The position numbers and the translations under genes were made by a program. The notes under the pieces were generated by a model. That model saw nothing but the letters and a program-made list of their open reading frames with translations. It was not told the origin of the DNA and ran no database searches. Below, piece by piece: positions 14,223-22,770 of a stretch of 64,000 nucleotides of DNA (position 1 is the first letter of the stretch; the number at the start of each line of letters is the position of its first letter). Source of the DNA: Longimicrobiales bacterium (GTDB taxonomy: Bacteria > Gemmatimonadota > Gemmatimonadetes > Longimicrobiales > Gaopeijiaceae); contig CBDCNQ010000002.1 in NCBI GenBank assembly GCA_965219445.1, positions 448,001 through 512,000 of the forward strand. Direction: 5' to 3'.

Positions 14223-14606
14223 ATGACTCGGACGATGCTGGCCGGCAAAATCCATCGGGCGACGGTGACCGAGGTCAACGTCGATTATGAGGGCTCGATA
14301 ACGATCGATCCGAGCCTCCTGGAGGCCTCCGGGATCCTGCCGTACGAAAAGGTCCAGGTTCTGGACATCACGAATGGCGCTCGGGTGGAAACCTACGCCA
14401 TCGAGGGCGAACGGGGGGCGGGTGAAGTCTGCGTCAACGGTGCGGCGGGGCATCTGATCCACGAGGGAGACTTGGTTATCATCCTCCATTTCGCGCAGGT
14501 CGGAGATGAAGAAGCCCCCCACGTCAAGCCGAAGATCGTGCGGGTGGACGCGAGAAACCACATCGCTTCCAAGCGCAGTCCGCTCCAAACCTACGCTGAC
14601 CGCTAG
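14223..14606 (+). CDS. panD: Aspartate 1-decarboxylase
   Basis: KIHRATVT, YEGSITID (Gly-Ser cleavage site), ETYAI, NGAAG. Confidence 0.96.
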   Translation: MTRTMLAGKIHRATVTEVNVDYEGSITIDPSLLEASGILPYEKVQVLDITNGARVETYAIEGERGAGEVCVNGAAGHLIHEGDLVIILHFAQVGDEEAPHVKPKIVRVDARNHIASKRSPLQTYADR

Positions 14607-14635
14607 TTTGCGTCGGTCCATGGGATCCACCTGCC

Positions 14636-15469
14636 GTGCGCGTTAGCATCCAGGACCTTCAAGTGTCGAAGGACCGGGGCGAGCGGTTTCCGGTCCTCAC
14701 GGCGTACGACTACCCCACCGCAAAGATCATCGACGAGCTTGGAATCCCCTTGATTCTCGTTGGGGATAGCTTGGGAAACGTGGTTCTCGGCTACGAATCG
14801 ACGGTCTTCGTGACGATGGATGAGATGCTCCACCACACGAAGGCGGTGACCCGTGGGGCGAAGCAGTCCCTGGTCGTGGGCGACATGCCGTTCATGAGCT
14901 ATCAGACGAATCCTGATGACGCTTTGACCAATGCTGCGCGGTTCCTGCGAGAAGGAGGAGCCCAGGCCGTAAAGCTCGAGGGCGGTGAGATTATGGCGGA
15001 GACGGTCCGCACCCTAACGGACCGCGGTATCGCCGTCATGGGCCACATCGGGTTCACGCCGCAGTCCGCGTATAAGATCGGGCAGCGGGTACAGGGTCGG
15101 TCTCTGGAGGCCGCCCGCAAGCTGGTTCGCGATGCTCAGGCGTTGGATGAGGCGGGAGCGTTCGCGGTCGTGTTGGAGTTGGTGCCCTCAGAGCTCGCGA
15201 AGGTGATTACGGATCGCATAAAGGTGCCAACGATCGGCATTGGTGCCGGCCCCGATTGCGATGCTCAGGTCCAGGTGATTAGTGATATCTTGGGCCTTTA
15301 CACCGATTTCGTACCGCGCCACGCCAAACGGTTCGCGAATCTGGCCGACGCCATCCGTGAAGGGGTGAAGGGTTACGCCGCCGAAGTGATGGACGGTAGC
15401 TTCCCAGCCGAAGAGCATGGCGCCGGGATGGAGGACGAGGTTCTGCGCGCACTGTTGAAGGACCTGTAG
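14636..15469 (+). CDS. panB: 3-methyl-2-oxobutanoate hydroxymethyltransferase
   Basis: LTAYD, LVGDSLG, DMPFMSY, VKLEGG, GHIGFTPQ. Confidence 0.96.
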   Translation: MRVSIQDLQVSKDRGERFPVLTAYDYPTAKIIDELGIPLILVGDSLGNVVLGYESTVFVTMDEMLHHTKAVTRGAKQSLVVGDMPFMSYQTNPDDALTNAARFLREGGAQAVKLEGGEIMAETVRTLTDRGIAVMGHIGFTPQSAYKIGQRVQGRSLEAARKLVRDAQALDEAGAFAVVLELVPSELAKVITDRIKVPTIGIGAGPDCDAQVQVISDILGLYTDFVPRHAKRFANLADAIREGVKGYAAEVMDGSFPAEEHGAGMEDEVLRALLKDL

Positions 15470-15487
15470 TCTCGCCGCTCTTAACGA

Positions 15488-16339
15488 ATGCAGATCCTTA
15501 CTACGATCGACGACTTCCGCTCAGTACGAGAGAAGATCCGCTCCACCGGGTCGTTGGGGTTCGTCCCGACGATGGGCTATCTGCACGATGGCCATCTCGA
15601 GTTGGTACGACACGCGCGTGTGGAGAATGGGAGGGTCGCCGTGTCCATTTTCATGAACCCGACTCAATTCGGCCCGGATGAGGACCTGCGTACTTACCCG
15701 CGCGACTTTGAAGGAGATCAGGCCCTTCTGGAGAAAGCGGGGTGTGACCTCCTCTTCTATCCAGCCGTGGAAGAAATGTACCCGCCCGACGGTGGGGATG
15801 TCCACGTATTGCCGGGGAAGCTGGCGACCGTGCTGGAGGGAGCTTCACGGCCGGGGCATTTCCGTGGCGTTGCAACGGTCGTGGCGAAACTCTTCAACAT
15901 TGTACAGCCAGAAAGAGCCTACTTCGGCCAAAAGGACGGTCAGCAGCTCGTGGTCATACGACGGATGGCACGGGACCTAGACTTTCCTGTTAAGATCGTT
16001 GCCGTGCCCACAGTACGCGAGCCGGACGGGTTGGCTATGTCTAGCCGCAATACCTACCTGAGTCCCGACGAGCGGTCGGGAGCGACCGTCCTCTACCGGG
16101 CCTTGATGCGCGCGCAGGAACTCCACTTGAAGGGAGAGCAAGACGCTAAGGTGCTCCGTGCAGCGGTGTTCGATGTCCTGGCCTCCGAGTGTCTCGCCGT
16201 GGCGGACTATGTTTCGATCGCCGACCCCGATACGCTGGAAGAGCTGGATTGGGTCGATGCCGACGCGCTGGTGTCGCTGGCCGTGCGAATCGGTCAGACT
16301 CGCCTCATCGATAACATCTTGCTAGGATCTCCAGCCTAG
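15488..16339 (+). CDS. panC: Pantoate-beta-alanine ligase
   Basis: FVPTMGYLHDGH, NPTQF, FGQKD, GLAMSSRN, RLIDN. Confidence 0.96.
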   Translation: MQILTTIDDFRSVREKIRSTGSLGFVPTMGYLHDGHLELVRHARVENGRVAVSIFMNPTQFGPDEDLRTYPRDFEGDQALLEKAGCDLLFYPAVEEMYPPDGGDVHVLPGKLATVLEGASRPGHFRGVATVVAKLFNIVQPERAYFGQKDGQQLVVIRRMARDLDFPVKIVAVPTVREPDGLAMSSRNTYLSPDERSGATVLYRALMRAQELHLKGEQDAKVLRAAVFDVLASECLAVADYVSIADPDTLEELDWVDADALVSLAVRIGQTRLIDNILLGSPA

Positions 16340-16644: not shown

Positions 16645-16867
16645 GCCCGAGTCAGGATATTCGCAGCGGACGGTTAAGCGGGGGTTCCGAGTCGATGGCT
16701 GCAGCTGAACTCAGCAGCGACTGACCAAAATTGTTGTCTGTAGAATATTACGTGTTTCCCCCACCTGACGTAGAATTGCACGGACCCAATCAGAGGAGGC
16801 GTTAGTCAGTGAAGTACTTCACTACGGGAGAAGCCTTGGAGGTTGGGTCAATAGGTGTGTAAATGTT

Positions 16868-18112
16868 TCAGGCGGCGTTTTTCCGCTGTTGGGTTGAGAC
16901 GGGCTTTCCGTCTTCGAACTTTCTTCCTTCAAATACGTCCTTGAGGAGGTGAGGAGCGTCGAGCCTTCTGAAGCGCTTCTCCGCCACCAAGAGCAGCTTC
17001 CAGATCAGCGCCGTAGCGCTCTCGACCCGCTTGAAGCGCTTCGCCGCCGTTGTCCTGAGCCGTACTGCGGCAAAGGGGCTCTCGACCACGTTCGTCGTGC
17101 GTAGATGCTTCCAGTGGTCCTCGGGGAAGTCGTAGAACGCCACCATCCGCTCCCAGTCGTCCTCGAGTACATCCACCGCCTTCGGATACCACGGTCTGTA
17201 GCGCCTGGCGAACGCCTCACGGGCCTTCAGCGCCTCGGACCGCCTCGGTGCGTAGACCACGGTCCTGAGAAGGTCCTTCGCCTCGCTCTGCTCCCGCTGA
17301 GGCAGCCGGTCCAGCACGTTCCTCATCTTGTGGTTCCAGCACCGTTGCTCGCCCGCCTCAGGCCATACCTGCCGTACTGCGCCCCAGATCGCCGCGTTGC
17401 CGTCCGCCATCAAAAGCCGGGGCGCCTCGATGCCGCGTGCCTTCAGATCCCGCAACACCTCGGACCAGGACTCGACCGACTCTCGGTAGCCCGATCTCAG
17501 GGCCAACACCTCCTTCGTACCATCTCGCATCGCACCGAGAACCACCAGCAGCGCTGCCTTGTCCCGCTCGAGCCCCGCCTTCACGTAGATCCCGTCCGCC
17601 CAGACGTAGACGACCTCACGGTCGGCCAGCGAGCGCTTCGACCATTCCTCGAATTTCCTTGTCCATCCCGCCCGCAGCCGCCAAATCGAAGACTTCGACA
17701 ACGGGGCCCCCTCGCCCAGCAGGCCCCGCATCGCCAGCTCGAAGTCTCCCTCCGCCAGCCCGTGCAGATACAGCTCCGGAAGCAGAGCACCCACCTCCTT
17801 CGTCCGTCGTGCGAACAACGGCAACACCCGACTCTCGAACCGCTCCTCAATGCCTCGAACCCGGGGCCGTCGGAGCATGATCGTGCCCGAGCTCATCGCC
17901 AGCCGCCGAGCCTTGCCGTAGCCGTTGCGGTAGCCTGGCGCCGGGTCTACGACCGTCTTCCGCTCCGACTTCTCCCGGCCGAGCAACTCCGTCACTTCCT
18001 CCTCCAGAATCCGCTGGACCATCTCCTGGGCCTTCTCACGAACCAGCGCTTCCAAGCACTCCCACGTCGGCGTGCTGGACTCACTCTCGGGTCCCACCAT
18101 ATTCTTCCTCAC
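16868..18112 (-). CDS. IS256-family (Mutator-like DDE) transposase
   Basis: YRNGY, VWADGIY, GYRES, ADG, QRCWNHKMRN, LRTTNVVES motifs. Confidence 0.95.
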   Translation of the reverse strand: MRKNMVGPESESSTPTWECLEALVREKAQEMVQRILEEEVTELLGREKSERKTVVDPAPGYRNGYGKARRLAMSSGTIMLRRPRVRGIEERFESRVLPLFARRTKEVGALLPELYLHGLAEGDFELAMRGLLGEGAPLSKSSIWRLRAGWTRKFEEWSKRSLADREVVYVWADGIYVKAGLERDKAALLVVLGAMRDGTKEVLALRSGYRESVESWSEVLRDLKARGIEAPRLLMADGNAAIWGAVRQVWPEAGEQRCWNHKMRNVLDRLPQREQSEAKDLLRTVVYAPRRSEALKAREAFARRYRPWYPKAVDVLEDDWERMVAFYDFPEDHWKHLRTTNVVESPFAAVRLRTTAAKRFKRVESATALIWKLLLVAEKRFRRLDAPHLLKDVFEGRKFEDGKPVSTQQRKNAA

Positions 18113-18394
18113 GAGGCATCGTTCCTTTCCCCCGGGCGCTCACCCGGGATTCGCTGGTTAACTTCTTACTACCTAGCGGAAAGGTACGTCGCCTCTTTTT
18201 TTACACACCCTTCTATGGGGCTGGCGGTCAAGACGCACCTTCCCCACGCGCCGTCGGCTCATTTTTTGACCGTCGGCGTCCGCATGGTTTGGATTGCCCG
18301 GTCGACGACTCAGGGTGGGGAGGGGTGCGCTCGCAGGGTCCGCATCGCAGTCCGGAAGACGTTCACAGCCGTCGCGTTCTCCGCTCTGGAGCGG

Positions 18395-18521
18395 GAACCA
18401 TCCTTCTATCTGGGACTCTGTGGCCCATCGCTTCGTTCGGCTCTTCCAGGGGTGCATAGCCTTTGAGTGGGGGCTTGGGCTCTCTGCCCCGGCCCACGGT
18501 GTGTATGGATGCTGTCCCCTG
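18395..18521 (-). ncRNA. Putative bridge/seek RNA core (target-binding loop plus donor-binding loop)
   Basis: Two stem/internal-loop/stem units; loop segments UACACACC and UCAAAGG match the target, AUAGAAGG matches the donor; true RNA ends unknown. Confidence 0.8.
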
Positions 18522-18598
18522 TAACCGGTTCGCTTCCGTTTCGTCGGACCCCATGTTGTGACCGCTTTCGACCCCACGCTCGCCGATCCCAGGCCGGT

Positions 18599-19654
18599 TT
18601 ACTCCGTCGCTTCCAGTCTCTTGGGGTCGTACGCTTCGCCCGTGCGCCACACCGCTAGCACGATCGAGGCGAGCTGACGCGCGATCGTCAGCTTCGCCAG
18701 ATTCGGCTTCGTGCCCCCCTCCAGGAGTCGCTCGTAGTGGCGGTACAAGGGCTCGTCCTCGGCCCGACCGATCACCGTCGTCGCTGCGCCCTTGAACACA
18801 CGCTTCAGCGTGTGGTTGAAGTTCCGATTCAGCCCCCGCGTCTGCTGTACCGGTTCCCTTACCCACCGCCCACCCGGACCCCGCACCCAGTCCGACGAGC
18901 TCCGCATCACGACGCCCAGTCCGCAGTACGCCCAGAACCTGCTCCGGCTCTGGAACCGGTACGGCGTCACCACCACCGGCAGGAGCTCCGCCGTCCGGAT
19001 CGGACCCAGACCCGGGCACGTCTTCAGCACATGCCACTCTCGATGCTTGCGTGCTTCCGCCAGCAACGCCTTCTCGGCCTTCGCCCTCAATGCCACGAGT
19101 GCGTCGTGCTCCTCGTACAGCAACCCGGCCGTCGTCCTGCTCGCTTCCGGCAGCTTGGCCAACCACTCCTCCCGGTCGCGCTTTAAGTAGACCGAGCGCC
19201 CCGCGCCGTAGGCCACTCCTCTCGAGCGCAGCACGCTCTTGAGCCGGTTCTTCACCCGCACCGTGTCGCCGACCAAGAAGTCGTAGCTCTTCGCCCGTTC
19301 CCCCAGCCGCCTGAACTGGCCCCGGTTCTTGTAGACCGTCGTCTCCAGTGATCCGATCCGCAGCTTCTCCGCCAGGGCAAACGCGTCCAGCTTGTCGGTC
19401 TTCGGGCCCCGGCTCTTGCCGACCCCCGCCACCGTCAGCTCCTCCACGTGCGGCTTCAGCACCTCGTACAGCCACCCCGACAGCGTCCCTTCTTCCAGGC
19501 ACAAGTGCCGGTTCCTCGGAATCCCTCGCAGCACCTCGATCAGCGCCCGCGCGTTCGTTTCCACCACCTGCGAGCCCAAGCGCTTGCCGCTGGGGCCTAC
19601 AATCCCCAGCGTGCAGCTCGACGCGTGTGCGTCGAGTCCGATATATCTCTCCAT
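18599..19654 (-). CDS. IS110-family DEDD recombinase/transposase
   Basis: YIGLDAH, LEEG, KTDKLDA, PGLGPIRTA, YCGL..RSSS, IARQLA; GAGGAG RBS before ATG 19654. Confidence 0.95.
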   Translation of the reverse strand: MERYIGLDAHASSCTLGIVGPSGKRLGSQVVETNARALIEVLRGIPRNRHLCLEEGTLSGWLYEVLKPHVEELTVAGVGKSRGPKTDKLDAFALAEKLRIGSLETTVYKNRGQFRRLGERAKSYDFLVGDTVRVKNRLKSVLRSRGVAYGAGRSVYLKRDREEWLAKLPEASRTTAGLLYEEHDALVALRAKAEKALLAEARKHREWHVLKTCPGLGPIRTAELLPVVVTPYRFQSRSRFWAYCGLGVVMRSSSDWVRGPGGRWVREPVQQTRGLNRNFNHTLKRVFKGAATTVIGRAEDEPLYRHYERLLEGGTKPNLAKLTIARQLASIVLAVWRTGEAYDPKRLEATE

Positions 19655-20100
19655 CGGCGTTCTCCTCTTGGATAGGTGGGTTGCTTCCTTGCGCGAACAA
19701 TGATGAACGCGCACCCGTTCCCGGAGGAGAACGCCTCTTCGTCTTCGGGCTGCTTAGCTGCTGATCGGTACCGGTAGCCGTCGCCATGCCCCTATGATGC
19801 CTTTGATCCTAGCTCCAAACAGTGCCACGTATCGAACAAAATAGGGTCTCATGAGACCTCCTCGGTTGAGCGCTACGCGCTTGATTGTGTCTGTGTGTAA
19901 TACGAGCGGAGAGACCTGCCGTCAACCGAAGGGGACGGCCCTGGGGTGCCTCGGCTCGCTCATCGAGTGCCGAACTCGGACAACGGCCCCTGAAATTCTG
20001 ACCCTCGCCGGGTTCGGCTTGACGGCCTCTTTCCCCGCTCGCATATCCAGCCGAGGGCCTTATATTTATGGCCCCTCACCCTTCTCTCCGAGGAGCTCCT

Positions 20101-20257: not shown

Positions 20258-20947
20258 GTGACGATGTCCGACACGTGGATGTTCTCGATTTCAGCGCTGA
20301 GTGCGGCGCTCCTCGGCGCCGCGTGCGGCACCGATAGCACGGCTCCAGAGGCCGCTCCGGCCGATTCGGTCCCTGAGGCCGTCGCGACTCAGCTCGTCAA
20401 GAGCGGTGGCGACCAGCAGGCCTGGTACTTCAACAACCCGCTCTCAACGCCCTACGCGGTGACGGCTCGGAGCGAAAACGACGATCCGGTGCCTGGCGTG
20501 GTGGTCACGTGGTCCGTGGCTTCGGGCGGTGGCTCGGTGGATCCTCCTCAGGTGGGAACCGACTCGAGCGGGCTCGCCCAAGCGACGCACACTTTGGGTC
20601 CCACGGCCATGTCCCAGTCGGTTACCGCAGGCGTCCCCGGCCTTCCCACGCTCACCTTCAACGCTACCGCGACCGATCCGCCGACCGCAGCCGCCGTGAT
20701 GGTGAAAAACAACTTCTTCGATCCCCGCGATGTGGTCGTGCAGATCGGCAGCACAGTCGTATGGACGTGGAACTCTTCGGGCGAGGTTCACAACGTGACG
20801 TATGTGGGCAGTCCTACGCCCCTTCCCCAGAGCTCGACCACGCAGGGAGCGGGCATGCACAGCAATACCTACGGGACGGCCACGAAGTACCGATATCTCT
20901 GCACAATCCACGGTGGCATGGAAGGTACGGTGACCGTGGTGCGGTGA
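20258..20947 (+). CDS. Lipoprotein with Ig-like (Big_1-like) and cupredoxin domains
   Basis: GAAC lipobox; SGGDQQ..PVPGVVVTWSV..GGGSV Ig-like segment; HNV..YLCTIHGGM type-1 copper ligands. Confidence 0.8.
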   Translation: MTMSDTWMFSISALSAALLGAACGTDSTAPEAAPADSVPEAVATQLVKSGGDQQAWYFNNPLSTPYAVTARSENDDPVPGVVVTWSVASGGGSVDPPQVGTDSSGLAQATHTLGPTAMSQSVTAGVPGLPTLTFNATATDPPTAAAVMVKNNFFDPRDVVVQIGSTVVWTWNSSGEVHNVTYVGSPTPLPQSSTTQGAGMHSNTYGTATKYRYLCTIHGGMEGTVTVVR

Positions 20948-20973
20948 TGACCCGAAGGGCTGAGGCCGGCGGA

Positions 20974-22770
20974 CTAGTAGTCGACCGGCCTCAAGTAGAA
21001 CTCGCCGATCGCGGTGGACGAAAGCATCGCGACCGTGGGCAGCTCCCTCTTCCAATGCGTCGCCGACAGTAGACGCCAGACGCGATCCACGTCGGCCTCA
21101 GGGACCCCGTCTCTCTTGAGCTCGTCGGCCGTATAGCCGAGGAGAAGCCAGTGGAGAATCGGATCGGCCCGGTGGTAAGAAATACCGAGCTCGTCCTCGT
21201 CATGAACGCCACGGACCAAGTCGGCCGACGCGGGCTTGTCGATGATCACGTCCGGCACCCCGAGGTGCCTGGCCAAGTCCCAGACCTGCGTCTTGAAGAG
21301 ATCCCCAAGCGGATTGATCGGGGGAGAATCATCCGCGTGCCACGTGTAATAGCCCAGGAGGCGCTCCGACTTGTTTCCCGTACCGAGCGGCAGCGCCCGG
21401 AGCTTCGCGGACTGGTCGAAAAGAATCACTGAACGGAGGCGGGCAGCCAGATTCCCCCGGCGAAGGGGCGAAAGGTCAGGCTCATGTTTCTCTATGTACG
21501 CGTCCACCGTCTCCGTAATCTCGATCGTACGACCCTCGGCACCGGACGCCTCCAGCACGAGCGCCGCGTGGTCCAGGCTCTCCTGGCTCGACGTCGCGTA
21601 AGGAAGGCGAAAGCCCGTCACGTTCTCGGGGCCGAGAGCGCGGACGGCCAAGAATAGCGACACGCTCGAATCCACTCCCCCGGATATACCGATCACCACA
21701 CGTTCGAAGCCGCGCCGACGAACGACTTCTTCCCGGATGAACTCCAGCAGAGCGCTTTCCACCAGGGGCAGATCCAGATCGAGTAGCCTGTCGTCTTCGG
21801 GATGGACGGGCGTATGCAGGCTCGGGCCCACGCGATCGAGCGGGGGCTCATCCTCCACCGGTTCGGGGCGAGGCGGGGTGGGTGGCCCAGCCGGGCCCTG
21901 GGCCTCCGTCAGCGCCCTCTGCAGGTGAGGGAGCGTCTGCTCGAGATCGGCCAACAAGGGGGACGCGACCCGGGCACGGTCCAGCGCCGCCGGATCCAGC
22001 TGGGCCAAGGTCACACCCTCGGCGAAGAGTGGTCCCCGTGCCAGAATCGAGCCGTCCGGCGCAACCGCAATGGACCCACCTGGAAACACCTTTCCCCCCT
22101 CCGAGCCGACGAGCTGACTGACCACAACGAACACACCGTGCTCGAGCGCGGTAGCCGGGGCCAAGGCCTCCCATCGACTCAGATTGTGCGGGCGCCCTTC
22201 CCCACTCGGAGTGAAGTCTCGCGCCGGAGACGCGCTCACGGCGATGATCAACTCCGCACCCCCTACGGTCAGGATCGTGGGCGGCAACGAGTGCCACATT
22301 TCCTCACAGATGAGGAGCCCTACCCGTCCGAACCTGGTATCGAACGCCTGGACCGTCCTTCCAGCCTCCACGAAGCGCGCCTCGTCGAAGACGCCGTAGG
22401 TGGGGAGAAACATCTTCCGGTGGACGTGGGTCGCCTCGAATCCTCGCTCGCCGGGCGTCAGATACACGACGCTGTTATACAGCCTCCGACGATGCCGTTC
22501 GAAGAAGCCGAGCACCACGTCAGGAGCCTCCTCCGGCGGTTGTCCCAGACCCTTTGCCACGTCCGCGGCCGAGCGCGCCGCCTCGGCAACACCACCCTCC
22601 AGGAAGTAGCCGGAAAGGCTCGCCTCGGGAAACACCAAGAGGTCGACCGTGCCCGCCTGCTCGGAGACCACCTCGCCAATCCGGGAGATATTGGAGGCGA
22701 CATCGGCCTTCTCGGGTTTGAACTGGGCGAGCCCCACCCGTAGCTGAGACCCTACTATCGGTCGTATCAT
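20974..22770 (-). CDS. nadE: Glutamine-dependent NAD+ synthetase
   Basis: Nitrilase domain (FPE, RKMFLPTYGVFDE, ICEE) plus GISGGVDS, TGNKSE, PLGDLFKT. Confidence 0.95.
   Translation of the reverse strand: MIRPIVGSQLRVGLAQFKPEKADVASNISRIGEVVSEQAGTVDLLVFPEASLSGYFLEGGVAEAARSAADVAKGLGQPPEEAPDVVLGFFERHRRRLYNSVVYLTPGERGFEATHVHRKMFLPTYGVFDEARFVEAGRTVQAFDTRFGRVGLLICEEMWHSLPPTILTVGGAELIIAVSASPARDFTPSGEGRPHNLSRWEALAPATALEHGVFVVVSQLVGSEGGKVFPGGSIAVAPDGSILARGPLFAEGVTLAQLDPAALDRARVASPLLADLEQTLPHLQRALTEAQGPAGPPTPPRPEPVEDEPPLDRVGPSLHTPVHPEDDRLLDLDLPLVESALLEFIREEVVRRRGFERVVIGISGGVDSSVSLFLAVRALGPENVTGFRLPYATSSQESLDHAALVLEASGAEGRTIEITETVDAYIEKHEPDLSPLRRGNLAARLRSVILFDQSAKLRALPLGTGNKSERLLGYYTWHADDSPPINPLGDLFKTQVWDLARHLGVPDVIIDKPASADLVRGVHDEDELGISYHRADPILHWLLLGYTADELKRDGVPEADVDRVWRLLSATHWKRELPTVAMLSSTAIGEFYLRPVDY

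Follow-up and report, generated by a model that had tools for sequence, protein, structure and literature searches.

An IS110-superfamily element with a predicted guide RNA lies inside the left terminal repeat of IS256-family elements in a Longimicrobiales genome

IS4321 and IS5075, of the IS1111 group, are said to target the terminal repeats of the Tn21 family, the original paper reportedly being that of Partridge and Hall in 2003. As far as the available part of PMC5001619 describes the two, the element studied here resembles them in lying at one fixed base and in one orientation inside the terminal repeat of another element, in its right end AGA, in the promoter layout predicted for its circle junction and in indels at left-flank junctions. 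Unlike IS4321/IS5075 with their Tn21-family target, it occupies the left repeat of IS256 (Mutator-type DDE), its subterminal repeats are imperfect, and it is chromosomal, with 23 sites in one genome; lesioned empty sites are present here, while IS4321 gave no empty-site junction. With the seekRNA systems ISEc11, ISKpn4 and ISPa11 (Siddiquee et al. 2024, PMC11187229, available text) the element shares an extended 3' non-coding region, terminal extensions of 7 bp and 3 bp and a top-strand complement placed before the bottom-strand match, and natural re-direction by guide change is common to ISEc11/ISXne4 and the clade of the element. The targets of these three systems are different, their recombinases carry an S/T-G motif as against RSSS here, and the present elements also stand apart in that one clade shows, at three places, re-direction from the ends of one IS family to those of another.

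Like IS621 (PMC11208160, PMC11208158 and PMC13626964, in the parts available), the element appears to combine DEDD with a serine recombinase, has a predicted target loop followed by a donor loop, and has a 2-nt core preceded by two exchangeable bases. IS621 differs: the RNA lies in its left end, its guides come in the opposite order, and it targets REP sequences. ISEc21 of the IS110 group, as described in the text available, is likewise guided by RNA into members of another IS family and has a protein of similar length, but its non-coding region is upstream, its guide order is opposite, and it enters a gene and not a terminal repeat, at the codon for the second catalytic D in IS3-family transposases. 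IS or repeat targets are on record for ISKpn4, ISPa11, ISEc21 and IS621, again in the portions of the sources available. An IS256-repeat or IS91-end target was absent from the literature search listings, a scope that leaves out subscription papers, ISfinder, TnPedia and supplements, and the search returned nothing combining IS110, bridge RNA, IS256 and target. The accessible part of a 2026 survey (10.64898/2026.08.14.744561) does not mention IS256. Targeting of terminal repeats is already known; what appears to be new, in the literature searched, is IS256 as the target, the recurrent change from IS91 ends and the presence of empty sites with lesions.

The window is a stretch of 64,000 nucleotides from a Longimicrobiales bacterium (GCA_965219445.1, contig CBDCNQ010000002.1, positions 448,001 to 512,000); the genome is referred to as G000. 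The composite locus is read on the minus strand. An intact 25-bp right repeat (IRR, 16839..16863), checked against the sequence, borders an open frame for a 414-aa transposase (16868..18112) that matched NCBIfam NF033543 with 295 bits (cut-off 150) and also Pfam PF00872. On these profile matches the host element is a member of the IS256 family with a Mutator-type DDE transposase. Its 25-bp left repeat (IRL) is split between bases 13 and 14: the inner 12 bp, the right target half, which starts with the AG core, lie at 18200..18211, and the outer 13 bp, the left target half, lie at 19803..19815, both on the minus strand. The initial annotation had placed IRR at 16839-16863 and the interrupted repeat at 18200-18212 (TTTACACACCCTT) and 19800-19815 (CCTTTGATCCTAGCTC), and these coordinates are right, as is its figure of 20/25 identities between the rebuilt IRL and IRR by manual column count. 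In place of the 4-bp CCTT duplication that it proposed, we adopt a 2-nt core, AG. Junctions of homologues read T/AGG on the left and AGA/AG followed by G, A, C or T on the right (the slash marks the junction), from which AG is the shared core and the element spans 18212-19802; the CCTT repeat is partly coincidence.

So delimited by comparison of homologue junctions, the inserted element (18212..19802, minus strand) is 1591 bp long and has the layout of the IS1111 group. Its right end (18212..18226) consists of the 3-bp extension AGA and a short imperfect subterminal repeat, and its left end (19782..19802) of the 7-bp extension AGGCATC and an imperfect subterminal repeat, both on the minus strand. 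The subterminal repeats agree at 12/14 positions with two single-base gaps, and at 6/12 ungapped (manual count); in some homologues both subterminal ends change together. About 390 nt downstream of the gene and about 150 nt upstream of it are non-coding.

The gene encodes a DEDD recombinase/transposase of 351 aa (18599..19654, minus strand, ATG at 19654), and 16/22 complete inserts in this genome retain the 351-aa frame. The recombinase scored above cut-off with both PF01548 and PF02371 and reached 111.9 bits with NF033542, under its cut-off of 140. Residues D8, E54, D87, D90 and S252-S253 are invariant among 20 homologues; S252-S253 stands in the expected place of the catalytic serine and is followed by S/A rather than G. 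A single-sequence search of solved structures gave 0 matches, and a profile search gave three, including the IS621 recombinase (8wt6, E 1e-10). The best plasmid matches, one of them named ISGdi15, have 23-27% identity. The element is, on its domains and ends, a member of the IS110 superfamily. It appears from its layout and guide order to work like the IS1111 group, of which it is a putative member. The frame also gave a weak match to a TIGR-Tas model, 57 bits against a cut-off of 100, which is attributed to a shared domain.

Element left ends in G000 were located by BLAST. At 23 of the 25, the outer half of an IS256 IRL adjoins the element with the same left junction, which confirms the reported insertion of an IS110-type element inside an IS256 IRL. 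One further full copy, at C2:336723, is off-target: its chromosomal site is unrelated and non-IS, and agrees with the left guide. The remaining left end belongs to a 57-nt remnant. This remnant (G000:C2:661546-661605) shows the junction type of relatives at IS91 ends. Among the outer halves of IRR in this genome, 29/30 are intact and none is filled; IRR and IRL differ at the base preceding the core. The IRL is unfilled in five IS256 copies, none with the exact rebuilt sequence, so that no exact empty IRL was found in this genome. One near-perfect site, at C1:205750, is unfilled.

A filled junction was found in 7/314 genomes of the family, this one included, with 22, 6, 6, 5, 4, 2 and 1 copies, and none was found in viral contigs. 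The rebuilt empty repeat, which the initial annotation had suggested searching for elsewhere, occurs exactly in 8/17 other genomes, and also as loose ends in contigs of 3/4 read runs from four studies; it can therefore be taken as the normal form of the repeat. The occurrence of the same junction at 23/25 left ends here and in 7/314 genomes, together with exact empty repeats elsewhere, argues against both chance and misassembly. Saturation is not general, since G129 has 1 filled IRL beside 44 exact empty ones and G103 has 6 beside 5. In G108, all 8 empty repeats are core-changed and stand beside 5 filled ones, and G131 contains 37 unfilled copies of another core variant. These core-changed IS256 isoforms, multiplied in G108 and G131, are possible escape alleles. 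The proposal that the element specialises on IS256 ends is supported by the occupancy of IRL in this and six other genomes, by predicted guides that match the site and co-vary with flanks, and by a 69%-identical homologue (L168) at the same base of a 73%-identical IS256; here it applies to IRL only and not to both ends. A variant of 95% identity in which the two guides have both changed (L145, G058:C1:4813432) lies after the outer 14 bp of an IS256 right repeat, and its right flank is unrelated. At another filled site (L079, G173:C7) three extra bases at the right junction equal the right tip of the element, another imprecise product.

The two outer flanks of the IS256 copy in the window do not match one another as target duplications. 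The right-side flank (16830..16838, no strand) differs from the left flank of its own copy and is 8/9 identical to the left flank of the copy at G000:C2:416881, and the left-side flank (19816..19824, no strand) agrees at 9/9 with the right-hand flank of a copy whose end is at G000:C2:419857. The window copy (16830-19824) and the inverted copy G000:C2:416881-419857 have thus swapped target duplications. In 3/5 genomes of the same genus the two sides are joined as the duplications predict, which points to an inversion of about 45 kb, real or assembled. That two repeats were mis-joined in assembly would agree with these swapped flanks and with the fact that no contig of the read-run assemblies compared spans the whole 3-kb locus. 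The same junction, however, recurs in 7/314 genomes and in an unrelated metagenome contig (L168), and contigs of independent runs cross it; an assembly artefact can practically be dismissed.

Comparison of homologues showed that the 3' non-coding region of about 390 nt is a conserved scaffold with two variable stretches. A part of the predicted RNA region (18386..18449) adjoins the predicted target-binding loop (18450..18519), the seekRNA part, which comprises a stem, a two-guide internal loop and an apical hairpin; both are on the minus strand, as are the guides. The predicted left target guide (18460..18467), CTCAAAGG, matches the left target plus core at 7/8 positions. The predicted right target guide, a 10-mer at 18497..18506, is complementary in its middle 8 nt to GGTGTGTA, which belongs to the inner half of the IS256 IRL. 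The top-strand complement comes ahead of the bottom-strand match, in agreement with the IS1111 seekRNA rule (PMC11187229, available text). The loop after the target loop contains ATAGAAGG, which equals the element's joined ends, and the right donor guide had no confident placement in the RNA region. Joining of the ends in a circle would put TTGACC (18226..18231, minus strand), a predicted -35 box, 17 nt before CATCAT, and TTGAC recurs in homologues. Neither a sigma-70 promoter nor a terminator was found in 18050-18650 of the linear locus. No circle-junction joint was seen among the 15 of 26 joints listed from contigs, which cannot show absence. The RNA runs screened contained 5-7% of the sequence words of the stretch.

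The guides of homologues were compared with their own flanks, with rows drawn from those of 232 loci whose loop pattern and junction could be parsed, a selection that lost the more distant homologues. When each distinct guide counted as one row, the right flank matched its own guide at 7.19/9 positions and shuffled guides at 4.95 (n=21, p 5e-5), and the left flank at 4.18/5 against 2.11 (n=11, p 5e-5), p values that overstate the case because the rows are related by descent. After removal of IS256-type guides and the close clade the right-flank match was 7.17 against 5.38 for shuffled guides (n=18), and after removal of the close clade the left-flank match was 4.29 against 2.75 (n=7, p 0.007). 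The right-guide test took the best of three registers, with a shift of at most 2 nt and the same freedom for the shuffles; it replaced a weaker fixed-register test (3.81 against 2.95 of 8). Two of the 21 rows had a poor right-flank match, with 3 and 4 of 9. The 3' region as a whole folds no better than shuffles (z -1.24), and 1/4 target loops folds as drawn by minimum energy, so the loop structure rests on conservation and co-variation.

From these matches, the element almost certainly finds the IS256 IRL by means of a predicted RNA. The site could instead be chosen by a protein or by DNA structure, for example by IS256 transposase bound to the end, with the RNA matches incidental. Such a choice would fit the 44 empty sites beside a filled one in G129 and the register shifts in the right guide. 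It is nevertheless very improbable, as guides vary with flanks in homologues that lie within unrelated DNA, the off-target copy occupies a non-IS site that fits the guide, and IRR, different at the base before the core, is unused.

The IS256 host has 25-bp terminal repeats and keeps its own 8-9 bp target duplication in 10/24 copies with both ends; flanks of the other copies match those of another copy. Since only 10/24 copies keep their own duplication, inserts may have been shuffled by recombination among copies or by mis-joins. The inner parts of 14/22 IS256 copies are identical over 1373 bp, and 11 of these are filled, with 11 different inserts. Among the full-length inserts 20/21 sequences are distinct, and one insert sequence is common to two IS256 types. 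Identical IS256 parts with different inserts are the reverse of what amplification of one unit would give, and separate insertion after the spread of IS256 is the simpler account. On this comparison, it is likely that the element entered the IS256 copies separately.

IS256 transposase might also move the 2.98-kb composite by means of IRR and the 16 surviving outer bases of IRL, so that the inserted element hitch-hikes. The composite is the commonest form in this genome, most filled copies retain an intact IS256 frame, and one named record has four loci (L007, L008, L010 and L012), every one of them filled, with a repeat variant in common, as hitch-hiking would predict. Several composites also have their own 8-9 bp target duplication (10/24 copies with both ends), although duplications are equally expected if IS256 moved first. 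Hitch-hiking is improbable given the 11 different inserts in 11 identical IS256 parts, the match of 5/12 between the inner half of IRL and the bases that replace it (manual column count), and the large IS256 expansions in G129 and G131, which are empty. The initial annotation had left it open whether the element disables its host or travels with it, and the sequences favour disabling. An insert in IRL probably blocks transposition of that IS256 copy; IS256 circles reportedly start to form from the left end (PMC3942029, available text).

In this genome, four of the five empty IRLs are altered by one base within the two positions that precede the core: a G-for-A at the first base, a G-for-A at the second, an added G and a lost A. 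Three of these IRLs are in copies from the set of 14 identical IS256 copies, each with a different change, and three bring in G, as at the right end of the element. At the bases before the core, donor and target differ by one G against A, which is the change at C4:1221680, so the simple G-for-A donor product is seen in 1/4 lesions. In the fifth empty IRL (C5:635832) the difference lies in the inner half, and G058 has this allele too. Two of the four lesions were compared with reads, from a run that may be the source sample (X1) and a run of the same study (X2). The added G at C4:199262 is spanned without difference by contigs of both, and a loose end in X2 reproduces the C4:1221680 lesion (G-for-A, first base) with its flank. 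The two substitution lesions were seen in 0 of the 122 matches in 17 other genomes, the plus-one lesion was absent from 5 further genomes, and no lesion of the G000 kind was found in 5 other genomes.

In the available parts of the relevant papers, the two bases before the IS621 core are exchanged on one strand and are mismatched after the reaction (PMC11208158, PMC13626964), and the IS621 target is regenerated at a low rate (same sources). IS4321, with its right end AGA, gives indels at the left-flank junction at 1.7e-2, and IS4321/IS5075 gave no empty-site junction against 5651 circle junctions (PMC5001619). The target is reported as not regenerated by ISEc11 (PMC11187229) or CazIS110-1 (bioRxiv 10.1101/2025.10.25.684509). 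Excision may accordingly be very rare, judging from IS4321/IS5075, ISEc11 and CazIS110-1.

By analogy with its characterised relatives, the element would copy or cut itself out as a circle, the joined ends of which would form a promoter, and the RNA-guided DEDD recombinase would exchange strands at the AG core of the target. The split IRL, with its 13 outer bases 1.6 kb from the inner 12, would no longer serve IS256 transposase, and the blocked IS256 copy would stay so until the element leaves. A rare excision or an aborted insertion would leave a mismatch beside the core, repair of which would give a one-base lesion, and lesioned repeats would then be poor targets. We consider it reasonably probable that the four lesions are such footprints of the recombinase. 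The targeting may also be real and the lesions ordinary mutations, pre-existing resistant alleles or consensus errors, in which case the element never leaves. IS1111-type elements are reported to copy out without target restoration, resistant-looking alleles have multiplied elsewhere (8 in G108, 37 in G131), the fifth empty allele also occurs in G058, and one lesion removes an A from an A-run. Ordinary mutation is nonetheless unlikely to explain lesions that are single-copy, all different and all at the two bases before the core, three of them in copies otherwise identical over 1373 bp; three lesions add G like the right end of the element, and two are backed by read contigs. As a whole, insertion into IRL guided by a predicted RNA, separate entry, a block of IS256 and footprint lesions form the best explanation, with a probability of roughly 0.78.

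Distant homologues carry guides for GGAT/AGG-n-CAA sites. Among their right flanks of at least 400 nt, 10/22 match an IS91-family transposase, two of these being the query loci themselves, and Pfam Y2_Tnp was found in 5/22 frames. In 9/10 of the IS91-matching flanks the transposase gene points towards the insert. Relatives therefore seem, from their flanks, often to occupy the downstream end of IS91 elements, an end that we take to be oriIS. The flank check suggested by the initial annotation had a divided outcome: most distant homologues insert elsewhere, at IS91 ends, and the guides are different there, which fits the guide reading.

IS256-end targeting appears at three places in the tree, namely the close clade, L168 with L167, and L185. 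L168, on the unrelated metagenome contig and with 69% protein identity, occupies the same base of a 73%-identical IS256, and L167 groups with it. L185 (61%) has the opposite orientation; it occupies the left end of a different element of the IS256 family (PF00872) and has its own matching guides. A single clade of IS256-end targeters was rejected by the AU test (p 1e-5 and 4e-5) in a quick tree of 28 rows; for the second tree L027, with a long frameshift-like branch, was left out and only 4 rows of the close clade were kept, and a fuller tree was also built. Transfer of guides between the close clade and L168 by a swap of the whole RNA was considered and is unsupported, as the L168 scaffold is that of its own lineage (0.80-0.91 against 0.51-0.83). 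Near-identical guides thus stand on two scaffolds, which may mean that guides are rewritten from a template and not base by base. L167:586 combines IS256-type guides with an IS91-type left junction and is possibly a re-programming intermediate or a chimeric contig.

The scattered IS256-end targeting may be an old shared state plus reversals. The broader idea of an arms race of IS on IS, in which guides switched repeatedly from IS91 to IS256 ends, nearly every IS256 copy in the genome was frozen, and rare exit left a restored and immune end, is tentative and on present evidence rather doubtful. If true, it would give in vivo evidence that an IS1111-type system can excise with heteroduplex repair, and on exit the element would convert the target with its own donor base. 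The locus is a natural test bed for whether IS1111-type elements leave and rejoin their target in cells, on which published work disagrees, for the fate of a mismatch adjacent to the core, and for natural re-programming of guides. The locus also suggests that an IS can limit how far a different one spreads, a point relevant to genome stability where bacteria are rich in IS. It further offers a divergent recombinase whose guides can be read, along with many guide-target pairs from nature.

Several other features were observed at these loci. At G000:C4:1169767-1171666 (L141), a 1.9-kb insert with a 500-aa frame containing YADD lies in the inner half of IRL, a few bases past the right end of the IS110 element, giving three nested elements; the ends of the insert look to us, from remembered patterns, like those of a group II intron. 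A composite copy at G000:C5:1611126-1614615 contains a second IS110 segment and totals 3.49 kb. In L005:3557-4838 the last 460 bp of the element, the gene end and RNA region, are present in three tandem copies. About 3 kb of flank plus insert is 99% identical between a named record (L006:1-3009) and this genome (G000:C2:602534-605543); this block, a filled site on a shared island, contains an internal 141-bp tandem repeat. The locus in the window is neighboured by a pantoate ligase (PF02569) and a frame resembling an Ig-like plus cupredoxin lipoprotein (14223-16339 and 20258-22770), and the neighbours presumably include panB, panD and a glutamine-dependent NAD synthetase. Short MITE-like repeats of two abundant kinds, about 100-220 bp and about 150 bp, are spread through G000, for example at C2:619144-619346 and C2:256204-256357.
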